This document shows, piece by piece, positions 1 through 51,606 of a stretch of 64,000 bases of DNA; the first letter of the stretch is position 1, and the number at the start of each line of letters is the position of its first letter. The notes beneath the pieces are model-generated. The model ran no database searches. It had not been told where the DNA came from and saw only the letters and a list, made by a program, of their open reading frames with translations. Made by a program: the position numbers and the translations under genes. Source of the stretch: Eledone cirrhosa (taxonomy: Eukaryota); contig OZ024740.1 in NCBI GenBank assembly GCA_964016885.1, positions 214,520,001 to 214,584,000 of the forward strand. Reading direction: 5' to 3'.

Positions 1-2592
1 GCGCTCCCTCTCAGTCTTCGCTTGACCCAGGACTGCAGCTCCGTCAAGGAAACGAGCTGGGGAAATACGTGTCTAGCAAACGGCGACCACACCTGATCAC
101 CGTCGAGGAAGAGGTGGAGATGTCGTAGCCTGAGCGCGTGCCTGCGCATCATCAGCCACGGCATGCCCAGCCCTCCACGTAGCGGGTGTTGACAACAGAT
201 GGACCGCCTGACCATCGGAGCGCGTCCCTTCCACAAAAAGCGAAAGCGCAAACGCTCCAGCGCAGTCAGGCGAGGCTTAGGACAAGGCACCACGGTCAGG
301 CGGTAGCAGATGACAGACGCGATGTACGCGTTAGCCACCTCCGCTGTTGGACGGCATGGACCTGCCTCTCCAGGTGCCGAGCTGCAGGCCCACTGACTTT
401 TCCTGGTTGATCATTGCTCCTGTCACCGCTTCGTATTCTCTTAGTGTAGTGCCGATCGCCTCGATGTGTTTGGCGTTCGACACCACTACGGTGACATCGT
501 CCGCATATGCTGACACGGATCTTCCGCATCCTAGTTCGCGCGGGACGCCCCTCAACGTCTCCAGTTTGTGCAGTAATGGCTCGAAAGTCAATACGTACAA
601 GAGGGACGAGAGGGGACATCCTTGGCGGACCGAGAGCATGATGTTGAACGGTTCCGACAGGTGACCGTTCACTCTCACCACAGAGCAGATGTCGCTGTGC
701 ATGGCAGCGATCCAGCCTCTGAAGACGGGCCCAAAGCCAGCCGCCCTCAGGACTGCCGCTAGGTAACGATGGTCGACCCTATCGAAAGCTTTCGACTGAT
801 CTAAATTGATCAAGGACCCACCCGTGCCTGGTTCCCTAGCTACCCTCTCTACGATGTATCGCATGAGGTGGAGGTTGTTGTGGATGGATCTGTCGGGAAT
901 GGCGCACGTCTGCGCCTCTCTCACCAGACCACCAACGACAAGCGCAAACCTCTTTGCTAGCACCTTGGCCAAAATCTTTAACTCTGTGTTTAGCAGAGTT
1001 ATGGGCCTAAAATTATCTATGTTATCCCCCTTGTTCGGATCCTTTCTGAGCAGCGCCACAGCTATTCGGCTCACAGAGCTGGGAATTCTCCCGTTCTGTT
1101 GCCAGTTGCAGTAGACATCCGCCAAGAGGCCACCGAACAAGTCTGGCATCTGTACGTAAAGTTCATAGGGCAGACCATCCAAACCAGGCGATTTACCCCT
1201 TGTGCAGCTAGTCATTGCCTCCCGTACTTCAGCGGCTGTTATCGGCTTTTCGAAACACCCCGCCTCAGTGGCCGAGAGCCGCGGCAGACCGTCGAGGTAG
1301 ACACTAAAGTCCATCCTTCGATCCGGTCCGCCGCTGCCCCCGAACAACTGAGCGAAGTGTCGCTGAAAAGCTTCACACATTTGCCCGGGATCGAGTAACA
1401 TGCGCCCGTAGTGGTCCACCAAAGACCGGATCGTGGCTTTGTTGCCACGACGCGCCTCCGCCACTCGGGCCCATTGAACGGCTTTCGTCCCCTCGTGTCT
1501 GAGAGCACGCACCCTAGCTCTGACAACGCAGCCTTCCTGCTTTGCATTGAAGAATTGGTCAAGGGCCAATTTCGCCGCAAGTACGTCGGTAGCGATGCCT
1601 TTGCTAAGCGCCTCGTCTAATTTTCTATCTAATTCTCCCTCTGCTCTATTTTTCTCTATTGCTAAAGCCTTACTAAACCTAATGGAGTCTATTCTAATTG
1701 ATCTTTTCAGAGCAAACCACCACTTGTTGTTGACGATGGCCCCCGTCAACGCCCGCTTAACTAGTTCGCTAATCCGGTCTCTGTAGGCCTTGCGCGCTGG
1801 TAAGGACGCGTTTAGCTTCCAGTAGCCGGGTCCTCGTCTATGAAGCCTATCTAAGTCAAGCACACAGATCACGAATTTGTGGTCCGTGTAGCTGACTATC
1901 TTGAATTGTGGACAGCCTATGCTAGACCTATCTATTTCCCTACAAAATACTCTATCTAGATATGATCTGGATGACCCTATGCGATTTGTCCAAGTCCACA
2001 TTGGCACATTTGGGAAATCCAATCGGTACCTGTCAGACAGTTCAAAACGCCTGAGTAGGTTGGTGAGGTTCTTGCACTCTCCTCCCCTATCCGCTAATCC
2101 CACACAGTCCCAGCTTGCATCTAAGATCCCGTTCCAGTCGCCCACTAACACTAAAGAGCGGGACGTTCTAAGAAAGGTCTCCAGACGCCGGAAGAAATCA
2201 GGCCGCCTTGCTCCTGTCGGGGCATAGACGGCCACTAGCCTGAAAGCTTTCCCGTCTCCGCTGGTCACGTCCAGCACCACCAACTTACCTTCTGGGTCCA
2301 GGAAGATGGCCCGTATGGCGAGATCCAAACCTCTCCGAAAAAGCACAGCAACTCCTTCCCCCGATCCAGGACGGCTGGGAGATGCGTACACATCGTGGCC
2401 GCCGAAGATCGGTGCGAAGGCCCGTGCTTCGGAGATTCTGGTCTCGCTGAAGGCCACTACATCTATCTTTAGTGACCTGAGGTCGTTGAGCAGGTGGCCC
2501 TGCTTCCATGACGACCCCAAGCCACGCGCATTTATGCTGCCTATTCTTAGTGAGGTCATGTTGAATGGAGTGGAAAAGATGGGAAAGACCAC
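1..2592 (-). pseudogene. Tx1 ORF2 (APE endonuclease + reverse transcriptase), frameshifted near 340
   Basis: SINARG, VGDWN, SYLDR, TDH (APE); KSPGLDG, FRPITLLN, DQSKAFDRV, VRQGCPLS, YADD (RT); ATG at 2559. Confidence 0.92.
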
Positions 2593-4533
2593 TTACCTTA
2601 CTTCTCGTAGAGGAAGGATGGTTTCTCCATCCTTTTCACTGCTTGGAGACTCCTCCGGAAGGATGTCCTTATAAATCCTCCTGGAGAGTGCTTGTCGGAA
2701 GTCTCCGATGTCTTTGGGGAATTTTTGTTTTAGTGTCGTGTGCGTTTTCTGTGTGATGCGAGTGATTTGTATGTGTGGAGGTGGTGTGAACTTTTGGGTT
2801 GTTGTATAGTCCTTTTCTGTGATGCTGTTATTGTGTTGCATGTAGTGTAATAATTGGTTGTTGTTCAAATTTAATGCTGTGTAATGTGTATCGTTTTGGT
2901 TGTTTTGTTTTGTTTGCGTTTGTTGTGGGTTTGTTTCTGTTACGCTCTTTGGTGACTTTTGTGGTGTTGGTGATGGTGGTGTTGGGGTTAATGATGGCGA
3001 TGGTGTTGGTGTTTGTGGTGATGGGGTTGGTGATGCTGGTGTGGATGGTGGCATATCTGTCCTATCTTTTTTGTTTGATAGTTTATTTGTTTCCCTCTGT
3101 ATTTTGTTTTTTGGGGGGGAGGGAAGAGAATTTTTTCTTTTTTGGTTTCTTTTTTTCTTTTTTCCTGATACCGTTTCCCACTCCTCGTCGTCACAATCTG
3201 TCTCCAGCTGTGATAGGCCGGAGAGTGGAAAGTCCTCCACAGGCGTTGGTTTTGGTTGTGGCGTGGTGGATGGCGTAGGCGCTGGTGCTAGTTCTGGCGC
3301 GTCGGATGGTGGTGGTGTTGGTTTTGCTACTGTTGCTGGGGTTGTTGCTGTTACAGTTGCTTCTGTTGTTGCTGTTACAGTTGTTGCTGCTATTTCTGCT
3401 GCTGGTGGTGATGATGGTTGAGTCACTGGGGTGGGTAAGAGAGGTGGCCTCAACCTTTTAGCCTGAGGACAGAAAGCCCTTAGGTGGGTTCCTTCACCAT
3501 AAACGACACACCTAGGCCTTCTGCCTTCGACGATTACGGTGAGGTGGCTGCCGTCAGTGAGGTCTATTACCTCTGGGATCTCCTCAATGCTTTTTTGGTC
3601 CGCTTGGATCAGGAGCTCCATCCCAGATCCGAACCATTTCTCCTGCTTTTCTTTCGCTATTTCGATTATCTTGGTGTTGGGTTCGATGCCGGCGAGGACG
3701 GCAGCTATTAGCCAGGGCATTTCGATGGCCGGTGGAACGTGGGTCACGCTGATCTTCACGAGTCTCTGGCCACAATAGCTTGGGACGAGTGTGAAGTCGT
3801 CACTTCTTAATGGGGCCATGGAGTGTTCTCTGGCCTCCTGTGGTGTTTCAAAGAACACGTCCACGGTTCCATATTTCTGCCCACGTCTGAGGTATGTTTT
3901 TTGCCCACACATGTCCCAAAGCTTTTTGGATTTGGGACTTGGATGCCCGTTCCACTCGGCGCGATTTTATGCTAATCCTTTGATAAGATACGGTGAATAG
4001 GCGCCGATGCTCCATTTTATTAGTTGGGGGGTGAGGCTGACCCTGTACCCATCTTTCTTTACCATTATTTTGGCTTCTTCTAATTCCTCCTGAGTTACCT
4101 GGAATGCTTCGCACTGTTTTGCTACTCTGGCAAAACTCAGGGTGGTTTTCTTAATTTCATTGTTGCTGTTGGTGTTATCGTTATTTTTGTTATTGTTAAT
4201 TTTAGTTTCAGTTGTGGTGGTGGTGGCGTCAGTGGTGTTCGGTGTGGAAGAGTTCATTTTGGTTGAATTCATTTTGATATCACGAGTTAATTTATTTTTT
4301 TCTTTTGTTTCTGTTGTCGCTGTGTTGGTGGTGGGGGTGGCGGCTTTAACACCTGCAGTCATTGGTAATGGCGGGAAATGAATGTCTGCCTGAGACAAAT
4401 TTAAAATATTGCTACTGCTTATATTTTTAGTGTTGGCAAACGTAGTAATATTTACAATGGTGGTGTAGGTGTGAGGTGTTAGTTTGTGAGTTTGTGAGGA
4501 AGGTGTGACACTGAGTCGTCCATGATTTTTCAA
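2593..4533 (-). pseudogene. Tx1 ORF1 (gag-like nucleic-acid-binding protein), frameshift near 3960
   Basis: ORFs 3967-4533 and 2593-3912; degenerate knuckle CVVYGEGTHLRAFC; W..V..KKKKR basic motif; SFARVAK motif matches TFAQTVK of copy 2. Confidence 0.8.
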
Positions 4534-4736
4534 AGAAAAATCTTTGTTTGATAATTATAAAAGTTTAAATTCTGGGCTCAAGGCCCCAATATTTTTGAGT
4601 GTCCTTTTCAGAAATCAATGTATGTGCACTTATATACAGTTAATAATAAACATTTTCCATAAATGGCAATTTTAAACAACTGAAAATAACAAACCTTTGC
4701 GGAGCTCACGATGATACGATTTACTACGTAGGTGGC

Positions 4737-8475
<3,739 letters not shown>

Positions 8476-8477
8476 TA

Positions 8478-11400: not shown

Positions 11401-11998
11401 AGTGTAAACACCTAGCCCAGACCCACTATAAGGGCTGGAGACACGATGTGATGGGCAGGGTGATCCACTGGCACCTGTGCAAAGTAAACAATCTACCACA
11501 TTCTGAGAAATGGTATGAGCATAGGCCAGAGGCGGTGATGGAGAACAATCAGGTGAAGGTGCTGTGGGATTTTAGGATACAGACGGACAAAAAACTGGAA
11601 CACAATAGACCTGACCTGGTGGTTGTGGACAAAGAAAAAAGATCGTGCCTGATTGTTGATGTGGCCTGCCCGTTCGACACGAGAGTGCAAGAGAAGGAGA
11701 GGGAGAAAATTAACCGATACCAGGACCTAAAGTGGGAGGTGAAAAGGATTTGGAACTGCCATGAAGTCAAAGTGATCCCGATTGTCATAGGCGCACTGGG
11801 GACTATCTCCAAAAGTTTCCAGGGATGGTTAAAGAAAATCGGCCCCTTCACGCTTTTTGGAACGCTTCAAAAGGCATGCTTGCTTGGAACAGGAAGAACC
11901 CTCCGATACGTCCTGAATATCTGAGGCTGCAGGTAGTGGCTTGATATTCAATCCAACGGACTTTCCAGTTAACCAACATCAATGACTGAGATTCAAGG
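8478..11998 (+). mobile_element. R4/Dong-clade LINE copy B, tandem to copy A, same family
   Basis: ORFs 8632-10278 and 10245-11924 colinear with copy A; about 100-nt deletion in RT; (TAA)n at 8429-8472 and 12000-12057. Confidence 0.93.
8632..11924 (+). pseudogene. RT-RLE polyprotein of R4/Dong copy B, one frameshifting deletion at about 10256
   Basis: FMDD; CCHC; PD..D..K endonuclease RPDLVVVD-DVACPFD-EKINRYQDL. Confidence 0.9.
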
Positions 11999-13019: not shown

Positions 13020-16000
13020 AATTTAAAAAAAACAACAAAAAGAAAACCCCGTGACCAAGAAATACCGGGATGGCGGCCGGCGGGGAATAGCCGTGTCTCT
13101 AGGGGAGAACGACCCCTCTAGTCTTGGTTGACACTCGTTCTAGAAGTGGTAACACGAAATGATTACCCCTTGGCGGATAAGGATAAAACGCGACAAAATA
13201 AAGTAAATGTCTAATGATAAAATCTCATACCGGATCGGCCGTCACCCGGGTAAAAAAGGGCCGTGTCCCTCAGAGAGGAACCAGACTGGGGTCGAAAAAT
13301 CAGCTAATGGTTCAAACCTTCCCATCACTTCGGAGCTGGAGACCTCCCATAACCGGAATACTCCTACTGTTGGCCCTCCATGCTCACCACCAAGAAATCC
13401 AAAGAAAAAGAGAGAAAAATGGTCAAGGGAAGATAATAAAGAAGTCCTTGAGGCTTTCTACACTGCCATGTACTACCCATCAAATACATCGAATACAGAA
13501 CAGACATATATCAACTGGAAAAAGAAACATCCCGAAAACAGAGGCTATATTGACAGTAAAAAACTAGCCAATATACGAAGAAATATTGTAAGAAAAAAGT
13601 TACTAACTGATATAGAAATTTATCAGATCAAGCTATTAGCACAAAGTCAGCGAAGGGAAAATGAAACATGTGTCAGTGAAAACGAGGTAAACTGTAACAC
13701 TTCGAACCCCAGGGTTGGGGCGGAATCACTGGCAACAGAACAAATTAAAGAAAGGATCGAAAAAGTGGAGGGAGTGCATGCTCAGGATGAAACTCCAAAT
13801 GAAAATAATGAGATCGTAAATGATAAAGAAATGAATGAGAATGAACTTGCCAACTTGAAGGATGAAATTATGATCGAATGGATGAAAATGAAAGAATCTG
13901 ACATGGGGCAACGAGACACCCTCCCTAAGATCCAGAACTCCAAACAGAACCAAAAGATAATACACAAGACTAACACAATTCTCAAAAACATTATCATCAC
14001 AAACAAACTAAACATGACTGATTTAAATCATCTCTACTATGCATCGGCGAAAGTCACCACTCACTTATGTGGAGTTAAGATGAAAAAACAAAGGAATTCC
14101 CACAAGAAATCTACTTGGCAAGAGAACATCAATCGCCAAATAAACCTTCTCCGATCTGACATAGAAATTTTAACAAACTATAAAGTAGGTGAACATGTTA
14201 AACAAACTAAACTTAGTAAATTGAAGAGAAAGTACAGTATAAAATCAACAAGTGACATAGACATGCTGATAGAAATAATCAAGCAAAAAGTGTAGGCCAA
14301 AGCTGCTCGTATAAGGCGCTTTGAAAAACGATCTAGATTCTATAAGGACAATAATATGTTCAAAAACAACCAAAGAAACTTCTACAGAAAAATTGGTAAG
14401 TCAACAATAACTGCTAAATCAATACCACCCAAGGAGGAAGTGCAAGAATTCTGGGAAAAGATCTGGGCCGAAGAAAAAGTTCATAACATACATGCCCCAT
14501 GGATAGACAGACAAATGAAAGATACAGCTCACCTTGAGGAACAAATATGGGAAAATATAACAGTTGAACAGTTGCGCTTGGCTCTAAGAAAAACCGGCAA
14601 ATGAAAATCCCCAGGAAAAGACAAAATACAAAATTTTTGGATAAATGCCTTCACAGAGTCTCATGAGCTGTTAGCCCAACTTTACAATGAAATAATTAAG
14701 GAGCCAGAAAAGATACCATCATGGCTAGTTAACGGCATTACATTCCTGCTTCCGAAGAATGATGAGACAAACAATCCCAAAAATTACAGACCGATAACTT
14801 GCTTGACCACAATGTATAAAATTTTAACATCAGTCCTAACTGAATACACATATGACCACCTGATAACAAATGATCTATTTCCCATTGAGCAGAAAGGGTG
14901 TACACGAGGCTCATATGGCTGTAAGGATCACCTTTTGGTTAACAAAATGATACTGGAAGATTGTCATAATAGACACAAAAATCTATCGATTGCTTGGATA
15001 GATTATAAAAAAGCATTCGATAGTTTGCCACACAGTTGGATTGAAAAATGTTTAGAGATTTTCAAAATATCCCCCGTTGTCAGGAGGTTTTTGTCATTCA
15101 GTATGAAGACATGGAAAACGACACTCCTTTTGAATAGTGAAACAAAATCACTGGAAGCTGGAGAAGTTAATATTAATTGTGGAATTTTTCAGGGTGACTC
15201 TTTATCACCGCTTTTATTCTGCATCGCACTTATACCATTAAGTAAAATGCTCAATGAAACAAAACATGGATATAAAGTCTATGACAAAACCATTAATCAC
15301 TTGTTCTACATGGATGACCTGAAACTATTTGCAAAAAATGATGAACAATTGCAAGGGCTATTATCCACTGTGGAGCAGTTCAGTGATGACATTAAAATGG
15401 AGTTTGGACTAGATAAATGCGCCAAAGCAACGTTCACCAGAGGAAAGCTGCTGAAGAGTTCAGGCATTAATCTTGATCGGGGGAACGTGATAAGGGAACT
15501 TGATCAAGAAAAACTTACAAATATCTAGGTGTTTGTGAAGGAGACGGAATCAAGCACTCGACAATGAGGGAAAGGATAAGGAAGGAATGTTACCGCAGAG
15601 TAAGAGCAATCTTAAGAACGGAATTGAATGCAAGGAATAGGATCGATGCCATAAACACGCTTGCCATACCAATAGTAACCTACAGTTACAATGTCATCAA
15701 CTGGTCAAGCACAGAGATCCGTAGGCTCGATACAAAAATTCGAAAATTCTTAACCATGCACAGAATGCATCACCCTAAGGTAGATATAGATAGAATATAT
15801 CTCCCTAGGAAAGAAGGAGGGCGTGGGTTAATCCAGTTAGACATTGCGTTGAAAACTGAAACAATTGGATTATCTACATATCTAAGGGAATCACATGATC
15901 GGAAAATCAAACTCGTTTTGAAACACGAAAGCATCAAAAGATCATATTCCATTACAAAAGATGCACAAAGATACAGTAATGGACTACAAATTTCAGAAGT

Positions 16001-17000
16001 CCCATTTACTGCTGAAATGGAAAACACAGAAAAAGCAAAGCAGGTAAAAGTAACTGCAAAGAAAGAACTGCTACAGAAACTGGCTAAGAAATGGCAAGAA
16101 AAGCCTCTGTATGGAAAATATCCAGAGCGAGCTAACAATCCTGATGTTGACAAAACTTTAACCCATCAGTGGTTGGCATCCTCTGGACTGAAATCGGAGA
16201 CTGAAGGACTGATTATATCAGCACAAGATCAGTGTCTGCCAACAAAAAATTACCAAGCCAACATAATAAAAAATGGATGCAGCCCATTATGCCGTGTATG
16301 CAAAAAACAACCAGAGACCATTGACCATATAATTTCAATGTGCAATCCTATAGCTCCAACCGAATACCTAAACAGGCATGACAGAGCAGCACAATACATG
16401 CATTGGATAATGTGTAAGCATTTTGACCTGCCCCATCAAAAGAATTGGTGGGAGCATCAACCACCTCCCATACTTGAAAAAGATCACATCTCAATCTTGT
16501 GGAACTTTAGCATCCAAACAGACCGAAAAATAGATGCAAATAGACCTGATATAATATTGAAGGACTTTAAAAAGAGGGTATGCCTGCTAATTGATATGTC
16601 TGTTCCAATAGACAAGAATGTATCTATAAAAACATTTGAAAAATTGAGCAAGTATAAGGACCTGGAGATAGAAATTGGAAAAATGTGGAAATTGAGAACT
16701 AAAACAATACCAGTGGTTGTAGGCGCTCTGGGAATGATACCTAAGGGGTCTAATGATTACTTATCGCAAATCCCAGGAAACCCGCGTATAGGAGAAATAC
16801 AAAAGATAGTACTAATGGGAACTGCCCATATACTAAGGAAGATTCTGTCAATATAAGTACATTACATGTCTAAACACTAAAGATGCATGTGTGTGTATGT
16901 ATGTTCTTTCCTGAACATGGCGGACCTTGTTGTCTCTTGAGGTCACTGGTTGTGACTTGGTGATAACTCGTATGAACATAAAGCAAGATAAATGCAACTG
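13020..17000 (+). mobile_element. R4/Dong-clade LINE copy C, second family, near full-length
   Basis: ORF 13207-16856 with stops at 14293 and 14602 and a frameshift near 15515; YMDD, CRVC..H..C, RHD, RPDII; ends in (TAA)n 17001-17021. Confidence 0.92.
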
Positions 17001-19125: not shown

Positions 19126-19369
19126 TTGTCTTACATTCTTTAGAGGATGATATATAAAATCTAGTATTAAGATCGATTCTTCTTCTTCTTCTTCTTCTTC
19201 TTCTTCTTCTTCTTCTTCTTCTTCTTCTTCTTCTTCTTCTTCTTCTTCTTCTTCTTCTTCTTCTTCTTCTTCTTCTTCTTCTTCTTCTTCTTCTTCTTCT
19301 TCTTTAAGATTTAAAAGAGTCGAAGTCAGTGTTTCAGCAGCATATGTACAAACTTTATTTGCATATTAC

Positions 19370-20377
19370 AGTTGTTCATGAACAGGATTGACATGCGCAG
19401 CCGGGTAGGAAGTGGTATCATGACAAGCGGATGTAAAATCAGTCGACTGGAATTTGCAGACGACATGGTGTTACTTAACTCGACAGAAGATGACCTTCGA
19501 AATGCACTTGATAGATTTGATGCCGAGTGTTGCATGACTGGAATGAAAATCAGTGCTGCGAAAACTGACACACTCGTCCTCTCAAGGAAGCCTGCGCAGT
19601 GCACACTACATGTGAATGAGGTTCCACTGAAGCTGGTAGAGAAGTTCAAGTATCTCGGGGCCGTGTTCGCGAGTGGTGGAAGGCAGGAGGCTGAATTAAG
19701 TGCAAGAGTAGCAAAAGCTGGTGCAATAATGTTCCAGCTTCAGCATTCGGTAACCAGAAGAAGGGAGGTAGGTGTAAAAGCTATCTTTAATTTGGTTTTC
19801 GTGCCAAACCTTTCCTATGGCCATGAATCTTGGATAATGACCGAAATAATACGATCGCGAATACAAGCGGCCGAAATGGGATTCCTCTGAAGGGTCTTTG
19901 AGGTAGCTCGAAAATAAGAGAGTCACTCCAAGTAGGGCCACTACTTCTCCGAATTGAGGGATTACAGCTTCGATACTGTGGGCATGTGGTTAGAATGTCC
20001 CAGGAAAGAATCGTTGGGCAGATTTTAAAGGCAAAACCACCTGGCAAGAGACCCAGAGGTAGACCTCGAGCTTGGTTGGTTACACTTGGGGATCCAGGTA
20101 GATCAGTTGGAGACAGTTGTTTCTGACAGGGTCCGCTGGAGGGAGTGTTTGAGGACTCTGTCCCCACGACCCTCTCAGGAATAAGTGGGTGAAGGAAGAA
20201 GAAGAAGAAGAAGAAGAAGAAGAAGAAGAAGAAGAAGAAGAAGAAGAAGAAGAAGAAGAAGAAGAAGAAGAAGAAGAAGAAGAAGAAGAAGAAGAAGAAG
20301 AAGAAGAAGAAGAAGAAGAAGAAGAAGAAGAAGAAGAAGAAGAAGAAGAAGAAGAAGAAGAAGAAGAAGAAGAAGAA
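19370..20377 (+). mobile_element. 5'-truncated RTE-clade LINE with (GAA)n tail
   Basis: FADD, KFKYLG, LSYGHESW, RIQAAEMGFL, KRPRGRPR; (GAA)n 20195-20377; (TTC)n upstream 19177-19303. Confidence 0.85.
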
Positions 20378-31744: not shown

Positions 31745-32548
31745 CCGAACTCTCCCTTCTCTATGTCTGTCACAAAATACTTTCTTTTAACCCCCCCTCT
31801 CTGTATCTACTAAAACCAAACTCTACCCCTCTCTATATCTACTACGACACCACTTCTCATATCCCAGTCTCTATATCTAAAACTAATACACTCTCTCACT
31901 CTCTATAAATATCTATACTTATCTCTCCCAATCCCCCTCTGTATATTAATCACCCCTAAACTCTCACCCTCTCTATATCTACTACACGGCGCTCTCCCAT
32001 TATTACTCTCTGTAAGGGCGGTGGATTGGCAGTATCGGTAGAGGGTCGGATGCCATGCTTTGCAGCAAAGAGTGACGGCCCTTTATGATCTGAGTTCAAA
32101 TCCCGCTGAGGTTAACTTTGCCTTTCATCCTTACGGGGTCGATAACATAAAGTACCAGTAATGCACTGGTTAATTGCTGGCCTTGTGCCAAAAGTAGAAA
32201 CAATTATTACTCTCTGTATATTTACAACCACATAATTTCCCCCCTCTCTATATCTACTACTCGGAACTCTCTTCCAATCCCCCTCTCTATATCAATAAAC
32301 ATCAAGCTCTTCCCATTTCTATATCTAATTACCGCCAAAATATCCCCCTCTCTATATCTACAATATAACACACTCTCATTCTGTCTCACTCTATCTATCA
32401 CTACCGAACTCTCCCCCTCTCTATATCGAACTACACGGCCTATCTCTATCAATCCTCTCCCTCTATTCATACCACCAAACTCTCTCCCTCCCTACATCAA
32501 CTATACAACATACTTGCCCAATCCACCTCTCTATATCAATTACCACTT
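31745..32548. repeat. Degenerate ~31-bp CTCTCTATATC satellite, continues at 38260-38770
   Basis: Recurrent CCCTCTCTATATC(AAT/TAC) on both sides of Tx1 copy 2. Confidence 0.75.
32016..32208 (+). mobile_element. Full-length tRNA-derived SINE
   Basis: A-box TGGCAGTATCGG, B-box GAGTTCAAATCC, Nin-like core, ATT tail. Confidence 0.88.
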
Positions 32549-32746
32549 GATATAGACGTGAATTACTTCGCTCCGGATTTTTACGGATTATTGTCAAAAA
32601 AACTGTGAGTTCATTGATCAATTTAATAGCATTGTTTAGTTTAACCCCTTGCCTGGGCCGTCAGACGTTGAGTCAACTAATTTTCGCCCCTTTCTGGGGC
32701 GAAATTTTCATTTTCATCTCAAAACTGTGTAGACTTGGTATCAACA

Positions 32747-34538
32747 ATGGATGCCATTTCCACCTCGCACACTGTTGTGAGTGCCACGCCCGCTAAGAAA
32801 AGTGGTGGAGGGAAGGTAGGAGTACAAAGCTTGCAGCCTTCCCCCCTCGCATTATCGAAAAACGTTGAAAATATTGAAACTACGAAACCAAACCCGGTAA
32901 ATAATACCAGCACCAACAACAAGAACAATGACAATAACACCACAACCAACAACTGCAACAATAGCAACACCAAGGAAAACATGAACAATATTACCAACAG
33001 TGACAGCAACAAAAAAGACAGCACCAAAACAACATTCGCACAGACTGTAAAATAAAACGAACTATACACGCCAATAGACATAACAAATGCTAAACAACTA
33101 TTACAAGACGCAAAACAATTCGTGACTTTTGGCGAAAACGGTGCTTTTAGCATCAATTCTCCACAGGAATTACGTAGAGAGGCTGTCCTGAAAACTGTGG
33201 TTTTCAGGACAATATCGAACGAAACAAGAAAACCAGCTCAATTATCACAAAATGAAATTGAGCTGGTTCTAAAAGATGCAATGAAGGACTTAACCTTCAT
33301 ACAAAAAGGTAAACTGTTTGGTAGAATTTCGGTGCTAATGAACAACCAGTCAACAGCTCAAAAGAACTCGGTATCACCCATTGTGTCCCCCCGCTTCACC
33401 TTTTTCCCCACATACAGGGGAAAAAGGACACAAAGAATAAAAATAATGAGTATCACACCAAATGTAAATATTTGGTGGATACTATGTGGAATCATTGACT
33501 TTGACGAAGACAAGATAATTTCAATAGGAAAGTCCTCCGGAGGTGTATTTGGTGGGACCAGCGTAGAAGTTCTGGTGCAAATGAGCCCAGAACGAATAGC
33601 GAATATCCCACAACGCGTGCTTCTGGACGGGCTAACTTATATAAACATTTCAGTGGAGAGAAGGCGGCCGTCATGTTACCACTGCTTAAGCAGGGGTCAC
33701 CTGAGGGCTGCCTGTCCTCAATTAACGAGTAAAAAAAAAAGGCTCTTCTGCCAACCCCGAACACAACAACACAACCACCACCACCACCACAACAACAACA
33801 ACCACAACAACACGGAAAAATAACAACACAAAACACTGTTCCACCCAACCCCTCCCCACCTAAAACAAATACAAAAGCAACCACAACAAAACCCCAAAAT
33901 ATACCCCTCCCCAACAACACGGAAGAGGACTCCGTATCAACGTCACCCAGTGACGACGAGGGAGAACCCTTTCAACAGGTGAAAAGGAAAAAAAAAGGCA
34001 CCACATTAACAAAAATGCCACAAACACACAACCACTAGCACAAACAGAACAAACATCACAAATAAAAAAAAACACCCCTCCCCAAAACATAACACATACT
34101 GCAAAACGCAAACACGCACAAGAACAACAAACAAAAACAAACACAACACAACAAAAACTCTATACATACATTAACAAGAACAATAAAACGTTGATGAAAG
34201 CGATAGAAAATAACCCTTCGGTGGAAACCGAAGGGATCACTTTCACCTACGCAGCGAACAAACCGCACCTAATGATGATTAGGGTCCCAACGGAAAATTA
34301 TGTAACTTTGAAAAAGAACCATCCAATGCATGTGGGGACCAACTGCACCAAACCACTTAACCACGTCCTATTGAGATATTTCCCCACCCCCACACCAGAC
34401 ACCCACACCCCACCAAACGCCCTAATCCCACCACACACTGATGTCCTCACCCCACCACAAACCACCACCCCACCAAACAACCCTTCCAACACCCCCATGA
34501 AAATTGTGCAGCCTGGTCCCCAGGAGACGAAGAGGTAA
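32747..34538 (+). pseudogene. Tx1 ORF1 with CCHC zinc knuckle; stop at 33053 and later frameshifts
   Basis: CYHCLSRGHLRAAC; Asn/Thr- and Pro-rich linkers as in copy 1. Confidence 0.8.
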
Positions 34539-34573
34539 GTAATTTCCTTCCTCTTCCTTTTTAACTCTTCAGC

Positions 34574-37500
34574 ACCAACAAGGCCAATATAAGAGTTGGA
34601 TGTGTGAATGCACGCGGCTTGGGGATGTCCTGTAAACAGGGCAAACTCTTAAATGACCTCAGGTCGCACAGAGTGGATGTAATGGTTATTTGCGAGTCCA
34701 GGATCAGCAGCGGCGAGCGCCAACTGGCCCCCATCTTCGACGACTTTGAGATCGACGCATCTCTCTGTCAGCCGAGGGGTGAGGGTGGGGTTGTCGTTCT
34801 GCTGCGAAAGTACCTGGGTCTTGCCACACAGAAGGTACACCTGGACCCGGAGGGTCGACTGGTGGTTTTAGACGTCGGCAGTGGTGAAGGTGGAGCTTTC
34901 AGGCTGGTGGCAGCGTATGCCCCATCTGGGACACCGCGACCGGACTTCTTCCGACGCCTGGAGAATTTCCTGGGAACGTCTCGCTCCTTCCTTTTAGTGG
35001 GGGACTGGAATGGTATCCTGGATGCACGTTGGGACTATGTAGGGGCATGTCCCGATAGAGGGGGGTGTAACAGCCTCAAACGATTAATCGGCCGATTTGA
35101 TCTGGCCGATAGATATCGACTAGATTTTCCGACTGTGCCACGGTGGACGTGGAGTAATCGCAGCGGAACATCTAGGTCGTACCTAGATAGGTTCCTAGTT
35201 AGAAATAAGGATAGGGACATATTAAGCTGTCCACGAATGTTCATGGTTGACTATTCGGATCACAAGTTGGTGACCGGAGTGGTCAACCTTGATAGAACTC
35301 ATAGACAGGGACCCGGTTACTGGAAACTAAACTTGTCTTTACCGACAAACAAAGCTTACAATAAGCGGATTAGCACACTAGTTAAGCAGCATTTGACGGG
35401 GGCAATTGTCAACAACAGGTGGTGGGGCTCTCTCAAGAGAGAAATTAGAATAGAATCGATAGGTTTTAGTCGACAATTAGCATCAGATAGGAATAGAACT
35501 GAAAGGGAATTAACAAATTGAGGAGAAGAGGCGATTAGGAGTGGCAACGTGGCCGGCGTGCTGGCGTCAAGAACGGCCCTAGACCAGTTCTTTGATGCGA
35601 AGCACGAGGGCTGCATTGTCAGGAGTAAAATACGTGCTCTGGGTAACGAGGGAGCCAAAGCTGTTAGCTGGGCCCGAGTGACAGAGGCAAAAAGTGGAAA
35701 CAAGTCCACGATTCGGTCTTTGAAGGACCAGGATGGACGCGTGATCCTTGAACCTAAGCGGATGAGTGCGGCCTTTTAACGGCGCTTTGCACAACTGTTC
35801 GGGAGGGGCGGCGGGCCGGGTGGGGCCATGGATTTCGGTCCATACCTCGACGGTCTGGCGCGGCTCTCGGAAGGGGAGGCGAAGTCCTACGAGGGGCCGA
35901 TTTCAGCCGCTGAAATAGGGGAAGCGTTGAGCCAATGCGGCAAACGCAAATCTCCGGGTCTCGATGGTCTACTATACGAACTTTATGTAGCGATGCCGGG
36001 CTTGTTCTCCGGTCTCCTGGAGGCGGTCTACTGCAACAGGCAACAGAACGGGAGAATTCCCAGTTCTGTGACCAAGGGCGTAGTCACGCTGGTGAGGAAG
36101 GACGAGAACAAGGGGGATGACATAGATAACTTCAGGCCCATAACTCTGCTAAACACAGAGTTAAAGATTTTGGCCAAGGTGTTAGCGAAGAGGTTGGCGC
36201 TTGTCGTCGGGAACCTGGTGGGAGAAGCGCAGACATGCGCAATCTCGTCCAGGTCCATACACGACAACCTCCACCTCATGCGATACATCGTAGAGAGGGT
36301 AGGGAACGAACCCGGCTTTGGTGGGGCCCTGATCAACTTGGATGAATCTAAGGCGTTCGATAGGGTTGACCATCGGTACCTGGATGCGGTGCTCGCGGCG
36401 GCAGGCTTCGGACCCGTTTTCAGGGACTGGATTGCTACAATGCACAACAGCAACACCTGCTCGAGGGTCAAGGTGAACGGCTACCTCTCGGAGCCGTTCC
36501 AAATCACGCGATCCATTCGACAGGGATGCCCTCTCTCCTCCCTCCTGTATGTGCTGGCTCTCGAGCCACTACTGCGGAAGCTGGAGCTGATGCAGGGCAT
36601 CCCCTTGGAACCGGGATTGCGGAAAGCGGTGTCGGCCTACGCCGATGACGTGACAGTAATGGTGTCGTGCGCCTCGGAAATCGGGCAGATCAGCACCTTA
36701 CTGGAGGAATATGAAAGGTTCACAGGAGCCAAGCTGAACCGGGACAAGTCCGTCGGTTTGCAACTCGGGACGTGGAGGGGCAAAACGATGCCCTCCGACG
36801 GCATCGTCGGACGCTGGACGGAGGGACCGGTGAAGCTGCTCGGGGTCTGGTTCGGACCGGACCTCCAGGTGGAGAAAAACTGGGACGAGGTAACGGGCAA
36901 GGTCTTTGCACTCGCCCAGAAGTGGGTCGAGTGCAAACTATCCCTGAAAGGTCGAACGGAGGTGGCGAACGCTTATATAGCGTCCGTCATCTACTACCGC
37001 TTGACCGTCGTGCCTTGCCCAGAGAAAACACTCGCCAAAATGAAGCGCGCGCTCTTCCGATTTCTTTGGAAGAAGCGGGCTCCTTTGGTGAGAAGATCCA
37101 TCTGCTGTCAACACCCTTCGAACGGAGGGCTGGGGATGCCGTGGCTGACGATGCGTATACACGCATTAAGGCTACGGCACCTCCAGGTATTCCTCACCGG
37201 TCAGCCGGTGTGGGCCCTGTTTGTGAGGCGAGCCTTTCCGAGACTCGTCTCACTCACCGAGCTGCAATCCTGGGTCAAGCAAAGACCGAGAAAAGTGGGC
37301 GACTGGCACATTGAATGTGCCCAGGCGCTCACGGCCCTCTGGCAAGCGGATCCAGCAATCAGTGGAGACTCAACCTCAACATTCTATAGAGGGTTGGTGC
37401 GCAGTAAGTGCAACGACGCTCTCGGAGAGGCTCTGGGCATGGAGGAAGACGAGCTGGCCAGTTTGTTCGGTAGGACGTTTGGCCCGGGACCGATGGACAA

Positions 37501-38020
37501 CTTCCAAAAGTCCCTGGCTTGGCAATGTTACCGAGGAGCTCTACCCGTTCGGGACAAGCTCTACAGACACGGGCGCCCGGGTAGGGACCCCTCGAAGAAG
37601 ATCTGTCAGAGATGCGTGCGTGACGAGGAAACCGTCGCACACGCATTCGTACACTGCCCGGGCGTTGCTGACCTGTGGGGCTATGTAGAACGACTACTGT
37701 CGCGGGTGGCACCAATCCGGTTGACCACCGAGAACATTGTCACGATCAAACCGCCTCCCCCTTTCAAAAACGAAGGAGAGGCGGTTTTCCTCTGTGTGAT
37801 AGCCATGGCGAAATAAGTTGTATGGTGGACAAGGTTGAAAGGGCTGAGGTCAGACACCTTTCTCTCCGGCCAACAACTGGTCTTTTTTTTCAAGCACCAC
37901 TTTAGAAGAAGGATCAGAATGGAGAGAGAGGTGCTCTACCCCAGCAAGTTTTATGAAAGATGGGTGAAAGTAGCGAGAATGGCCCGAGTGAATGGGCCTT
38001 CTCTCTATATCAGCCTGTAG
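34574..38020 (+). pseudogene. Tx1 ORF2 (APE-RT-zinc finger); stops at 35519, 35777, 37814
   Basis: CVNARG, VGDWN, SDH, FRPITLLN, RQGCPLS, YADD, CQRC..ET..H...C. Confidence 0.92.
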
Positions 38021-39324
38021 GTGATAGAGGAGAAGAATGAGAAGAGGAAGGAAGTACCCGCTCTTTGTGCTCCTGAAGAGGAGGGTTGCACATTTTTTCG
38101 GGGGTGTGTGCGACCCATGTCAACGCCCCTCCCTATTGAGGACATCGATTGTTAAATTTAATTTGTTATATGTTTTTTACACGTCTTTTTAAATGTATGT
38201 AAACTCCCCCCTTTGTATTTGTCCCAATCTTTGATGCCCTGGTGGCAAATAAATAGAAATATATATCTACTGCACAACACTCTCCCTCGTTCCCTCTCAC
38301 TCTATCCATCACTACCAAACTCTCCCGTTTCGATATCAATTATCACCAAACTATCACCCTCTTTATATATATACCATACAGCACTCTTTCCAAATCTCCC
38401 TCTCTATATCAATTAACACCAAACTCCCCCCTTTCTGTATCTACTACACGGAACTATTTTCTAATTCCCCTCTATATATCAATTAGCATCAAACTCTCTC
38501 CCTTTCTATGTCTACTAAACAGAACTCTCTTCCAATCCCCCTCTCTATATCAATTAACGCTAAACTCTCTCCCTCTCTATATCTACAACATAGAACTAAC
38601 TCTCTTCCAGTACCCTTTTCTATATCAATAAACATCAATCTCTCCCCCTCTCTATATCTAATATACAACATACTCTCCCAACCTTCCTCTCTATATCAAT
38701 TATTACCAAAATCTTCCCCTCTCTATATCTATATCTATATCTATATCTTTCTCTCCTCTCTCTACACAACATGTACATAAATTGTAGCACATATACAAAT
38801 AGATGTGTGTTTTGGTAGTTTTGGGAGAAAAATATAATTATTGAGGAGAGGGGTGGGGGGTCCCCTGGCCACCCCAGTTCCACCGCCCATGTGTTGGCGA
38901 AGTCATTAGTACCGTTCACTGGTTCTCTCGTGGTATATGTGGTTTAGGTGAAGGGGGTCAGTGCTTCGACAACTGCACGTCCAACAACTTTACTTTATAT
39001 GTGTTTGTAATATCTATATATGGTAGCTGTTGATAACATGTTCATGAGATATATATTTTCGTACAGCTGTAGCTCATTTAGTGCTGCTTCTGTTAACCAG
39101 ATTCTCGACCTAATGATTTCTGATAATGTAAAGAAATTGACTTGTGATAGTAGCTATGACACAAACATTATATAACATTTCATTCCTTACTTTATATACC
39201 ATGCTGTCTCCACCAAAGACACAGTGACAAACGAAATAGGGACACATTTTGACACTGTGTTAGTATAAGTCACTGTGTTTGTGGAATACTAGCAGTCGCC
39301 CCTACATATCACTTTCCGCTCTCT

Positions 39325-47459: not shown

Positions 47460-48200
47460 TATCTATCTATCTATCTATCTAGGGCGGGTAAAATTCCTGA
47501 GATCCATCGATGAGTTCTCTCCAGCGGTCGCTGTCCCGCATTATCGCTGCCATGTCCTGCGTCTCCAACAGACCAGTGTCTGTCCTTAGGGCATCAACAT
47601 ACGTTAACCTTGGTTTTCCTCTTCCAGTGTGTCCATGCAGGGGCTCCCACAGGAGCACTTAGTGCAGTGTCAACTCTGGAGGTCGGTGAGCATGTCTAGC
47701 TAACCTTTTGAGCTGACTTTTGGGAGTCTGCCGTACAGCTCTGAGTTCTTCATCCTCAGTGTATACTGATTAATGTTCAGAGCCATCCTCAGCATTCTCG
47801 TGTAGCACCCATCCAGCATCTGAGTGAATTTCTTTGTCAGTGTCCAAGTCTCAGACTCGTACAGCAGCACAGACTCTACTACAGCAACGAAGAGGCGGAT
47901 CTTCAGATCTTTACGAAGGTCCGATTTCCACACCGATCTCAAGCTGTGGCATGCCGCCCAGGCTTTGCTCTTCCTCTCGATCACATCATCTTCCTTATTC
48001 ACAATCTTTGCTCCCAAATACAGGAAGTCCTCAACCAATTCTAGCGGCTCCCCGCCTACATTAGTAATCTTCGCTGGCTTCTTAATATTCTCCACCATAT
48101 ATTTTATCTCAATCTCATTCATTCCCAGCCCCACACTCATCGACACAGTCTCCACCCCCTGCATCAAATCCTCTGCCTCCTTCACTGTGCTAAGGTTGCT
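47460..48200 (-). mobile_element. 5'-truncated RTE-clade LINE with (TAGA)n tail
   Basis: DFLYLG, VESVLLYESETWT, LDGCYTRMLR. Confidence 0.85.
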
Positions 48201-48310
48201 TGGATGCTTCCATAGGCGGTATGCGGCTGAGCACTCTATGCTCCTTCGGAGCAGAGTATAATAATATGGAAAACGAAGAATCAGTGATGCATCGAAACAC
48301 AATTTATTAA

Positions 48311-48399
48311 CGTATTACAATTGTTTGTCCGGCGAACAGCTCGAGGTGCGATGTTTGTGGATCGAACCTGACTCTGGATTCGCAAGTTCCTCAGATACG
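48311..48399 (-). ncRNA. Degenerate hammerhead (GAAA damaged)
   Basis: CGTAT CTGAGGA ... CAAA CAATT GTA ATACG then AATAAA. Confidence 0.5.
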
Positions 48400-48765: not shown

Positions 48766-49738
48766 AAGGCGTGTGGCTGAGTGGTTAGAGAATTGGATTC
48801 ACAATCTTGAGATTGTGAGTTCGATTCCTGGACTGGTCGATGCGTTATGTCCTTGAGCAAGACACTTTATTTCACGTTGCTCCTTCTACCTGGAGTTGCC
48901 ACCTATAGATAGTATTAGCAACTGGAATGACCGACGAAAACACTATTTCCTCGGTCAGATTTGACGAAAGTCGATCGATATATATATATATATATATATA
49001 AATGAAGTATTTCCATAGGAAAGGTAAAGTAAGAGAGAGTGCTCTCTGTAGGCTATATAGCTTTTTAGTTATGTAATAAACAACATAAGATAATTACTTC
49101 GTTTACCAAAGGTTTCACGAAGTTTACCAAAGGTAGATGGCGTAGGACAGAACACAGGAGAGGCACAAAAAACAAAGAAAAGAACCCCCAGTCACTGACC
49201 TCTTGGTCACAGAATGTGTGACGAAAGAACTTTGACAATATATAAACAACCATCTGGTTGTGGAACCAACCAACCAACCGGAAATTTATAAATTCCTAAA
49301 TTTATAAATTTATTATAATAAATTGAAGTGAAATAAGCTGGTGCGTGTGTTTCTTATTGGCAACATGACCCTCCCAAAGTATAACAATATCGGTTTCAAC
49401 ACACGTTTTCAGATAAAGAATCTTGCTTAACAAATTCAGAAACGAAATATATATATATATATATACGATATTAATAAATGGAAACTATATTTATAAAACT
49501 ATATTTATTTCATTATACATATTTCAGGGATACCACATTAAACCATGGTATGCCTTCATCAGACAAAATACAATATATAACAGTTTTACAAATAGGTTTG
49601 ACGTACCCTTTAAAATACAACCATTACTTTTGGAGGCTGTCTGGATAGTGATTTGTTTATATAATAAGTCATAGTGTTAAGCACAATTATAAAAAGACGG
49701 AGAGAAAGAAAAAAGACGGAGAGAGAGAAAAGAACAAA

Positions 49739-51606
49739 GACAAAACTAACAACCTTTATGGAGTACAAAAGGACATGTATAACGACCTTATATTGAAAGA
49801 ACTAAGGAAAAAGTACAAGGTAGCAAGTAAGGATGAACTAGAAAAAATGAATACAGATGCATCTTGTATAATGCATGAATTAGACATTGAGAATAAAACA
49901 CAACCCTTCATGCCTAGGAAACCCAAGATCAATATGAAGGATCACAAAAGAAACTTTGAAAATGATTTACCAGTCAGATTAATTGCACCATCTAAATCTG
50001 ACCTGGGCAAACTTAGCAAAAATATTCTAGACAGGGTAATACAACAAATTATAAACTTACCTAATTTATCTTACTTAAAATTATGGAAAGGGACTAGTGA
50101 GGTTATTGATTGGTTTAAAGAAATTAAATATAACTGTAATAATAAGTTTATTCAGCTGAATATTGCTAACTACTATTCATCTATCACTCCTAATCTACTG
50201 AATAAGGCACTAAATTACGCATTTAAACATACTGACCTAACTAGCAATGAAATGCACATTATATTATCGGCAAGGAAAACATTGATAGAATTTAATAACC
50301 AACTCTGGACTAGGGCAGATAGAAATAATAATTTCGACATAACTATGGGATCATCAGACTCAGCTCAGGTAACGGACCTTAATTTATAATTAATTCGCTA
50401 CATAGAAAAATACCAGGTGTAACCGGAGGATTATATCGTGATGACATGCTTTTACTTATAGAAGATAATAGCTGTGAACTAAATAGAAAAAGAAAACAAA
50501 TTATACAAATTTTTAATTACCTTAATCTAAAAATAGAAATAGAGAATAACCATAGAATAGTCAATTTTCTTGATGTAACACTAAATCTCAACACATGTCT
50601 TCATTATCCATTTCACAAACTAAATGAGAACTTGAATTATGTCAACTTTAACTCTAATCACTCCAGATCTGTTAAAAATACTATAGTGAACTCTGTTCAA
50701 GAACGAATTTCAAGAATTTCATCTAATAAAAATATATTTGATGAAAAAGCGCAGTATTACAACGAAGCATTAGCTAGAGCTGGATATAGAAATAAAATTA
50801 AATACATCGATAATAATAATAAGCAAACTAACCAAAATAATAACAATTTCAATTACGGTAACAACTTTAATAACTATAATAGAAAACATTACAATAATTC
50901 CAAAAGCCGAAAAAGAAATAGAACTAGAAATATATTATGGTTTGCTCCCCCGTTCTCACTAAATATTAAAACCCCTATTGCTAAACTATTCTTTAAAGCT
51001 CTTGACACACGCTTCCCTAGAACACATAAATATCACTCAATTTTTAATAGACACACTATAAAATTAACTTACTCGTCCACCAAAAATTTAGCACAAAATA
51101 TTAATAGAATTAATAATAGGAATTTAAAACCTAACCAAAATACCAATAATAACCCAAACAATATTCAATTAAATAACTGTAACTGTAGAAATAAATCTAA
51201 CTATCCGTTAAGTAACAACTGCTTAGCTAAAAATGTAGTGTACAATTGTAATGTTAAAACTAATTTAAATTCATTTAACTATGTTGGTGCCACCTCTACA
51301 GAATTTAAATTTCGCTTCAATAATCATAAGAATTCTTTCACAGATCCAAACAAAAAATCTTCAACTTCGCTATCTAGCCTACTATGGGACCTAAATCGAG
51401 ATAATATTAAGTATTCGTTGAGTTGGAATATTATTTCATAAGCTACTCCATTTAATTCCTCTTCAGAAAATTGTGATCTTTGTATTGAAGAAATATTCTT
51501 TATATTAAAGTTCAAAAATTCCCTTAATCTGAGGAACAATTTATTCAGTTGCTGCAGACATAGATTGAACTCAACGTTTAAATATAAATATAAATTTAAA
51601 ATGTAG
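49739..51606 (+). pseudogene. PLE reverse transcriptase + GIY-YIG endonuclease
   Basis: DKTNNLY, PVRLI, ITMGS, GLYRDD, NFLDVTL; CNCR..PL..C, VVY..YVG, CDLC, LN.R, CRH; frameshift about 50390, stop 51439. Confidence 0.9.

Follow-up and report, generated by a model that had tools for sequence, protein, structure and literature searches.

Element A, a decayed, near full-length LINE of the L1/Tx1 type, occupies positions 32557..38253 on the forward strand of the window, by which is meant the whole stretch of 64,000 nucleotides of Eledone cirrhosa DNA that was analysed. The 5' end of the element is approximate; its 3' boundary is set at 38253, where other copies diverge from the window sequence. 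Near the 5' end is a candidate donor-like GTGAGT (32605..32610, 7/9 consensus matches). ORF1 (32747..34538), with terminal codons AGG TAA, is broken, and carries a CX2CX4HX4C knuckle near 33675-33715. Its stop codon (TAA, 34536-38) is overlapped by a conserved splice-donor motif, GAG/GTAAGT (34532..34540; a slash within a splice motif marks the exon border). The C/T-rich spacer that follows (34541..34579) varies in length between copies and holds a proximal acceptor candidate, CAG, at 34570-72. The ORF2 start codon site (34580..34582, context AAC-AxG-G) is AAG in this copy and ATG in the family. ORF2 (34580..38020, ending in TAG at 38018-20) carries APE endonuclease (PF03372), RT (PF00078) and zf-RVT (PF13966) domains. 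A distal acceptor candidate (37997..38024), a C/T tract and then TAG/GTGA on the ORF2 stop, ranks 3 of 138, and a weaker CAG lies within the same region (38011-13). The 3' UTR (38021..38253) is purine-rich at its start and has AATAAA at 38248. All of these features are on the forward strand.

The preliminary description had called this copy decayed, and the damage is readily located. ORF1 has one stop (TAA at 33053-55) and one frameshift (somewhere in about 33730-33950), and ORF2 has three premature stops (35519, 35777 and 37814), of which that at 35777 is private to this copy (404/413 and 62/62 reads of other copies differ). In the 5' UTR, GTGAGT at 32605 and a TAG at 32730-32 (rank 11 of 138) may bound a 128-nt intron, 32605-32732. 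The element is embedded in a satellite built on CTCTCTATATC, with periods of 71 and 146 (window 31760-32556 and 38254-38731).

Judged by domain order, and compared without named Tx1 families, element A is an ordinary L1/Tx1-type LINE. The APE endonuclease lies at the N-terminus of ORF2 (PF03372, E 1.7e-13) and aligns with a human L1 endonuclease variant from the first strand on; RT (PF00078, E 1.1e-26) and then a C-terminal zinc-binding domain (PF13966, E 4.3e-7) follow. A separate ORF1 with a CCHC knuckle is visible in element A, and PF00098 is found on many ORF1 relatives; a Pfam scan of the ORF1 pieces of element A returned no family. Against PDB, the ORF2 of an intact relative (L029) best matches human LINE-1 ORF2p (E 4.7e-74), with R2 at E 9.3e-24, a ranking limited to clades with solved structures. 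Named homologues come from Argonauta hians, Octopus sinensis and O. bimaculoides, and L1-Tx1 elements of 13 families are annotated in Octopus vulgaris in the portion available of PMC13282606. Element A shares with the L1/Tx1 group its two ORFs, the ORF1 knuckle and the APE-RT-zinc finger order of ORF2, and its family shares an ORF2 that begins with M just upstream of the first APE strand. It differs from the elements of three papers on mollusc or L1 repeats (PMC13282606, PMC5203782, PMC10294476) in having a donor on the ORF1 stop and donors and acceptors round the ORF2 end, features that the available portions of those papers do not mention.

Element B (window 1-4560, reverse strand) belongs to a second family and is 62% (APE) and 72% (RT) identical to element A. 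An internal deletion near 335-345 breaks its ORF2 after the RT domain; its ORF1 is interrupted by a stop (3964-66), and its APE region contains another 9/9 donor, at 2288.

A splice-donor motif at the ORF1 stop

Splice sites were scored by crude consensus counts. On that measure the donor at 34535 is the only one with at least 8/9 matches in the 5691 nt of element A, and a donor this good arose within -5..+10 of the ORF1 stop in 0.5% of shuffles. The motif AG/GTAAGT is found on or just past the ORF1 stop in three of the four lineages with DNA, namely A, B and L, where the junction donor has 8/9, 9/9 and 9/9 consensus matches, respectively. In element B the donor AAG/GTAAGT (2591..2599, reverse strand) lies on the stop itself, the end of ORF1 reading GTA AGG TAA GT, and the ORF2 ATG at 2557..2559 on the same strand is homologous to 34580. 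The L family, whose loci were found by protein pattern and independently of the donor, includes 65 loci with an intact ORF1 of 636-665 aa and an ORF2 of 1155 aa, the latter 39-44% identical to ORF2 of A and B. The L junction reads GAG TAA G/GTAAGT, then seven variable bases, then ATG. The sequence AGGTAAGT is present at the junction in 64 of the 65 L-type loci, the exception being a decayed copy; with 64 loci from one record, L counts as one lineage. Two decayed relatives differ at this point, L067 reading TAG GAG/GTAAGT, with 3 nt from stop to donor, and L066 having a deletion at the junction.

Given a stop and the local composition, the chance of a donor with at least 8/9 matches is 0.5%, 0.9% and 1.5% per lineage, figures that measure retention and not independent origin, the lineages sharing ancestry. 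In a quick tree, all rows of which are unnamed, supported nodes lie between the A/B branch and the L branch, and the ORF1 tails cannot be aligned between A/B and L. The motif thus stands in three registers relative to the ORF1 stop, amid flanks with no alignable sequence, a pattern in favour of selection acting on the RNA; we consider it probable, with good confidence, that the donor motif is under selection. Among seven distinct ORF1 relatives with a native C-terminal motif, two have a C-terminal GK or GKS, as the donor reads in its third frame. The other five bear no trace of it in the protein, which would not show a motif lying past the stop. Family C13, placed with L in the quick tree, has no junction donor (best 5/9); its junction is made of the overlapping stop-start words TAATG or TGATG, and an 8/9 donor-like site lies about 220 nt inside its ORF2.

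Candidate acceptors at the 3' end and a proposed skipping of ORF2

Joined from 34534 to 38021, the transcript of element A would lose 3486 nt and have K-R-stop rebuilt exactly, with no residue added. From the same donor, the nearer CAG at 38013 would add one residue, and other strong sites would add 19 or 37. Acceptor candidates also recur at the 3' ends of relatives. In three L subfamilies a TAG in the 3' UTR ranks 1, 1 and 4 and is invariant in nine aligned units, and the 3' UTR of C13 holds a long pyrimidine tract ending in TAG/GTGA that ranks 1 of 189. Both L and C13 have a second donor at, or 14-40 nt past, the ORF2 stop, and the distance from it to the 3'-UTR acceptor is 236-263 nt (L) or 143-144 nt (C13). 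The second donors and 3'-UTR acceptors together suggest a plan of the form ORF1-donor-ORF2-(donor)-acceptor-3' end. The idea that the ORF2 stop always serves as the acceptor was rejected, TCG being found there in L021 and L056, of two L subfamilies.

The most economical reading of this plan would be the strategy of copia, of which we infer all but the motifs themselves. The GGTAAGT on the ORF1 stop codon would act as a true splice donor, presumably bound by U1, and would be joined to an acceptor at the 3' end, so that all of ORF2 is skipped and an ORF1-only mRNA results. Unspliced RNA would serve as ORF2 message and as template, as in Drosophila copia, and the purpose would be an excess of ORF1 protein over ORF2. 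We put at roughly 0.4 the probability that the conserved donor splices out the whole of ORF2 (about 3.5 kb) to a 3' acceptor in this copia-like manner, yielding ORF1-only mRNA, an estimate drawn from sequence comparison. LINEs need far more ORF1 than ORF2 protein, a ratio thought to be set wholly during translation of a single unspliced RNA. Nonsense-mediated decay would spare a spliced RNA whose junction lies only a few bases from the stop. The preliminary description had proposed that one donor could switch between an ORF1-only product and an ORF1-ORF2 fusion; the ORF1-only product agrees with this reading, and it is a conserved fusion micro-intron that lacks support.

As described in the portion available of PMC5580714, Drosophila copia removes an intron of about 3 kb covering POL, so that the RNA encodes gag alone, and the donor of Arabidopsis EVD has U1 binding as a further function, which blocks premature termination. 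The predicted intron of element A measures 3486 nt, beside the roughly 3 kb of copia. Common to copia, the shGAG RNA of EVD (Ty1-copia) and the present prediction are a donor after the structural ORF, a structural-protein-only RNA, and an unspliced RNA that is both RT message and template; a conserved donor just after the structural ORF is itself present in three of the four lineages here. Copia and EVD are LTR elements with a single gag-pol ORF and demonstrated splicing, whereas element A is a bicistronic LINE with splicing predicted. Within LINEs, human L1 likewise has splice signals in its transcript, giving spliced RNAs and SpIREs; as reported in the part of PMC5860796 available, those sites lie within the 5' UTR and ORF1, their use costs the RNA promoter or ORF1 sequence, and they are dead ends in evolution, whereas the present motif is placed on the ORF1 stop and has persisted between deeply diverged lineages. 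Drosophila TART, another non-LTR element, is similar in forming tandem arrays and in having transcripts that are spliced, but its introns, in the available text of PMC1636488, are in antisense UTR transcripts, and here it is the sense strand that bears the signals, at the ends of the ORFs. From these sources splicing of LINE RNA is already known (human L1, TART); no report of a conserved donor on the ORF1 stop was found in the open-licence literature, a scope outside which Repbase reports and most subscription papers fall. The mechanism by which more ORF1 than ORF2 protein is made is described as not fully understood in the part of PMC11485995 available. A conserved donor on the ORF1 stop would point to splicing or U1 control in a whole LINE clade, convergent with copia. 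If the skipping of ORF2 is real, a copia-like strategy of spliced subgenomic RNA would exist in non-LTR retrotransposons, with donors at both ORF ends, and ORF1-only retrocopies and cryptic donors would be predicted across octopus genomes.

Several findings stand against the skipping of ORF2. C13, nested with L, has no junction donor; the acceptors of L and C13 sit in the 3' UTR behind the second donor; and in element A the CAG at 38013 is nearer and competes, and 34572 scores above 38020. Spliced RNAs that retain the 3' end might be retrotransposed, yet no donor-to-acceptor deletion, and thus no spliced retrocopy, is among the eight internal joins in loci L001-L077, which are 5' truncations or deletions elsewhere. 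In the public runs no joint at 34534 is among the 15 listed of 307 joints, and no loose end at 34534 is among those listed. Depth before and after the donor, 167/15.5 in X6 (88 million letters) and 38,904/52,567 in X1, was weighed neither for nor against, as the figures come from contigs, which cannot show RNA level.

Three side observations may be recorded here. A canonical-looking 3'-UTR intron, running from the second donor through a long pyrimidine tract to a TAG, is kept in L and C13 copies (L029 7486 and 7735; L074 3024, 9573 and 16132), and a retrotransposon should lose such an intron if it were spliced in the template RNA. A 2209-nt contig from ENA (P0206) holds a complete 603-aa ORF1 relative ending in QGK and is about the size expected for an ORF1-only RNA, which may be mere fragmentation. 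About 145-160 nt before the ORF2 ATG there is a high-ranking TAG/G acceptor candidate (L029, L001, L015 3844; L074 12479), which in L and C13 sits inside a conserved ORF1 coding motif and may reflect protein constraint.

A second explanation is that the motif binds U1 snRNP and is seldom spliced, its role being to suppress premature cleavage and polyadenylation of a long intron-less RNA. Sites resembling donors are found repeatedly at the borders of ORFs: close to the 5' end in A and L, where ORF1 ends, and around the ORF2 stop. Of 107 3' ends of L (from overlapping loci), 95 have a donor on the ORF2 stop or no more than 40 nt from it, as do 3/3 of C13. All copies examined retain these stretches, so that the template RNA is unspliced, and the EVD donor provides a precedent (PMC5580714, in the part available). 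A role in U1 binding alone would leave unaccounted for the strong acceptor candidates that L and C13 likewise retain in their 3' UTRs, and in element A the precise restoration of the ORF1 end by the join fits real splicing. On this balance we regard U1 protection as the sole function of the motif as rather unlikely; ORF2-skipping splicing and U1 protection can coexist.

Still less likely, in our judgement, is that the motif is a signal for termination-reinitiation in translation, or a chance or inherited sequence without function. It does lie 13-45 nt before the ORF2 ATG, C13 has overlapping TAATG/TGATG words in its place, and translation of L1 ORF2, thought to proceed by reinitiation, can do without an AUG (PMC11485995, in the available part). 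Neither account sits well with an identical 8-mer across lineages that have unalignable flanks and three registers to the stop, nor with the second donor of L, whose only variant, GTAAGT to GTGAGT, keeps the splice consensus. UGGGA is known as a reinitiation motif. Its occurrence after the L donor was considered as such a signal and rejected, the sequence differing among subfamilies.

The spacer before ORF2 and the ORF2 start codon

The stretch from 34535 to 34572 had been put forward as a micro-intron whose removal would fuse ORF1 to an ATG-less ORF2. Its anatomy is as first described: it is 38 nt long, starts with GTAAGT, contains a C/T tract and TTAAC, and ends in TTCAG, and the AG at 34571-72 is the first past the donor hexamer, the sole earlier AG being inside GTAAG itself. 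Its removal gives ...ETK-STNKANIRVGCVNARG, in frame with the APE domain, and a TAA at 34562 closes the ORF2 frame upstream, both as had been claimed. By a simple pyrimidine score the acceptor at 34572 ranks 1 of the 138 YAG sites in element A. When the spacer is shuffled, 2.1% of the sequences have a YAG in frame and 30 nt or more from the donor; the statistic was chosen post hoc, and the surprise is at most what this figure conveys. At 34547, 14/24 reads have an extra T, an instance of spacer variation that falls inside the intron and would leave the spliced frame unaffected.

The claim that no ATG precedes the first APE motif holds for this copy and fails for the family. The codon at 34580 is AAG here, in the context AAC-AAG-GCC. 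Public runs were compared with the window at 80% likeness, X11 as raw reads and X1, X4 and X6 as contigs. The presence of an ATG in other copies had been named beforehand as the point to check, and an ATG is there: T stands at 34581 in 71/71 raw reads of X11 (17/17 and 54/54, with 21 start places) and in contigs of X1 (28, depth 69600/69600), X4 (2) and X6 (1). The cleanest X11 read with this T has no other difference to element A, and it therefore belongs to the A family. The lysine codon at 34580 aligns with the M of element B, which reads AAC-ATG there, and the distant L family also has its ORF2 ATG at the corresponding position. Of 76 fetched proteins, 41 have the N-terminal motif and all 41 begin with M, 6-11 residues before it, weak evidence as gene callers force M. 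The family ATG stands nine residues ahead of the first catalytic Asn. From these comparisons ORF2 almost certainly has its own ATG, lost here by one substitution. With a family ATG at 34580, ORF2 needs no fusion to ORF1, and the proposed rescue of an ATG-less ORF2 through a micro-intron is an artefact that comes from reading a single decayed copy.

Nor does the intron recur. An acceptor before ORF2 with the stop inside the intron is absent in B, L and C13. Element B has no AG between the donor hexamer and the ATG; its first AG (AAG), 51 nt on, is in frame and is weak and within ORF2. In L the stop is upstream of the donor and the 13-nt spacer has no AG, and the position of the stop makes an ORF1-ORF2 fusion impossible there. 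With the proximal acceptor absent in B and L, a conserved micro-intron is not supported by these sequences. The U-rich tract after the donor, we assume, may belong to a donor module and not to a nearby acceptor.

A weakened form of the fusion model, in which the A/B clade removes a short intron at a low rate to give a minor ORF1-ORF2 fusion, seems to us improbable. The best donor and the best acceptor of element A do lie 38 nt apart and in frame, undisturbed by the extra T; B likewise has its stop inside the donor, a C/T-rich spacer and a first AG in frame; and human introns of 37-65 nt, at the lower edge of which 38 nt would fall, are listed in the portion available of PMC4463651, 15 of them with splicing evidence. 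These points are met by the good context of the family's own ORF2 ATG, by the place of the in-frame AG of B, which is weak and lies beyond the ATG, and by the order of stop and donor in L. No fused protein of 801-2285 aa was found in what was a weak search, and there is none among 13 proteins inspected (380-861 aa) of 150 listed profile matches. As doubtful is a pairing of the acceptor at 34572, first of the 138, with the 5' donor at 32605 to give an ORF2-only mRNA with its ATG 8 nt into the exon: that GTGAGT has no ATG upstream of it in the element, a donor lies about 30 nt into L as well, and human L1 has functional donors and acceptors in its 5' UTR and ORF1 (PMC5860796, available portion), but neither B nor L has an AG before the ATG, and the strong donor 38 nt upstream of 34572 would compete.

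Source records, arrays and other retroelement remains

Metagenome pattern scans gave 46 and 310 matches with none related, viral contigs gave 10, 15 and 15 matches with none related, and a pattern of donor, ATG and APE gave 85 loci, none with an APE relative. Plasmids gave no match. Among further genomes 1/243 and 1/14 were positive, both being the two bacterial records already found. Rfam gave no match in seven loci and the window, nor in an L spacer at E up to 1, so that neither the motif nor the arrays described below can be put down to a gene for an snRNA, a tRNA or a spliced leader. No telomeric repeat was found in four loci.

The L loci lie on contigs filed in two bacterial metagenome-assembled genomes (L001-L065 and L074-L077; G001 contigs C3-C19 and G002:C16). 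The LINE DNA in those records is evidently host DNA, as we infer, and eukaryote-type LINE DNA in two bacterial records is a flag for contamination. Many G001 contigs are head-to-tail arrays of intact elements of 6.4-6.9 kb, each contig largely of one subfamily, and 5'-truncated units are joined directly behind the preceding 3' end. Such abutting of truncated units on previous 3' ends suggests insertion next to earlier copies. Target-site preference is common in Tx1. Past 38253 other copies of the A family run into ATCT-type repeats, a possible target preference; together with the head-to-tail arrays of L and their 5'-truncated members, this describes the context of insertion and defines no target.

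Further retroelement remains lie in the window at 5151-11924 and 13207-16856 (both forward strand), 19315-19890, 47700-48314 and 49652-51441. By eye we take them to include long RT ORFs whose C-terminus is restriction-like (R4/Dong-like), as two tandem copies and a third family, and presumably also fragments of an RTE-like RT, and an RT of Penelope-like type that ends in a GIY-YIG-like part. Two gene models (P0251 and P0282) join a piece of ORF1 to host-like domains, protease-like and LDL-repeat-like by eye, and are possibly exonised LINE fragments or mis-predictions.
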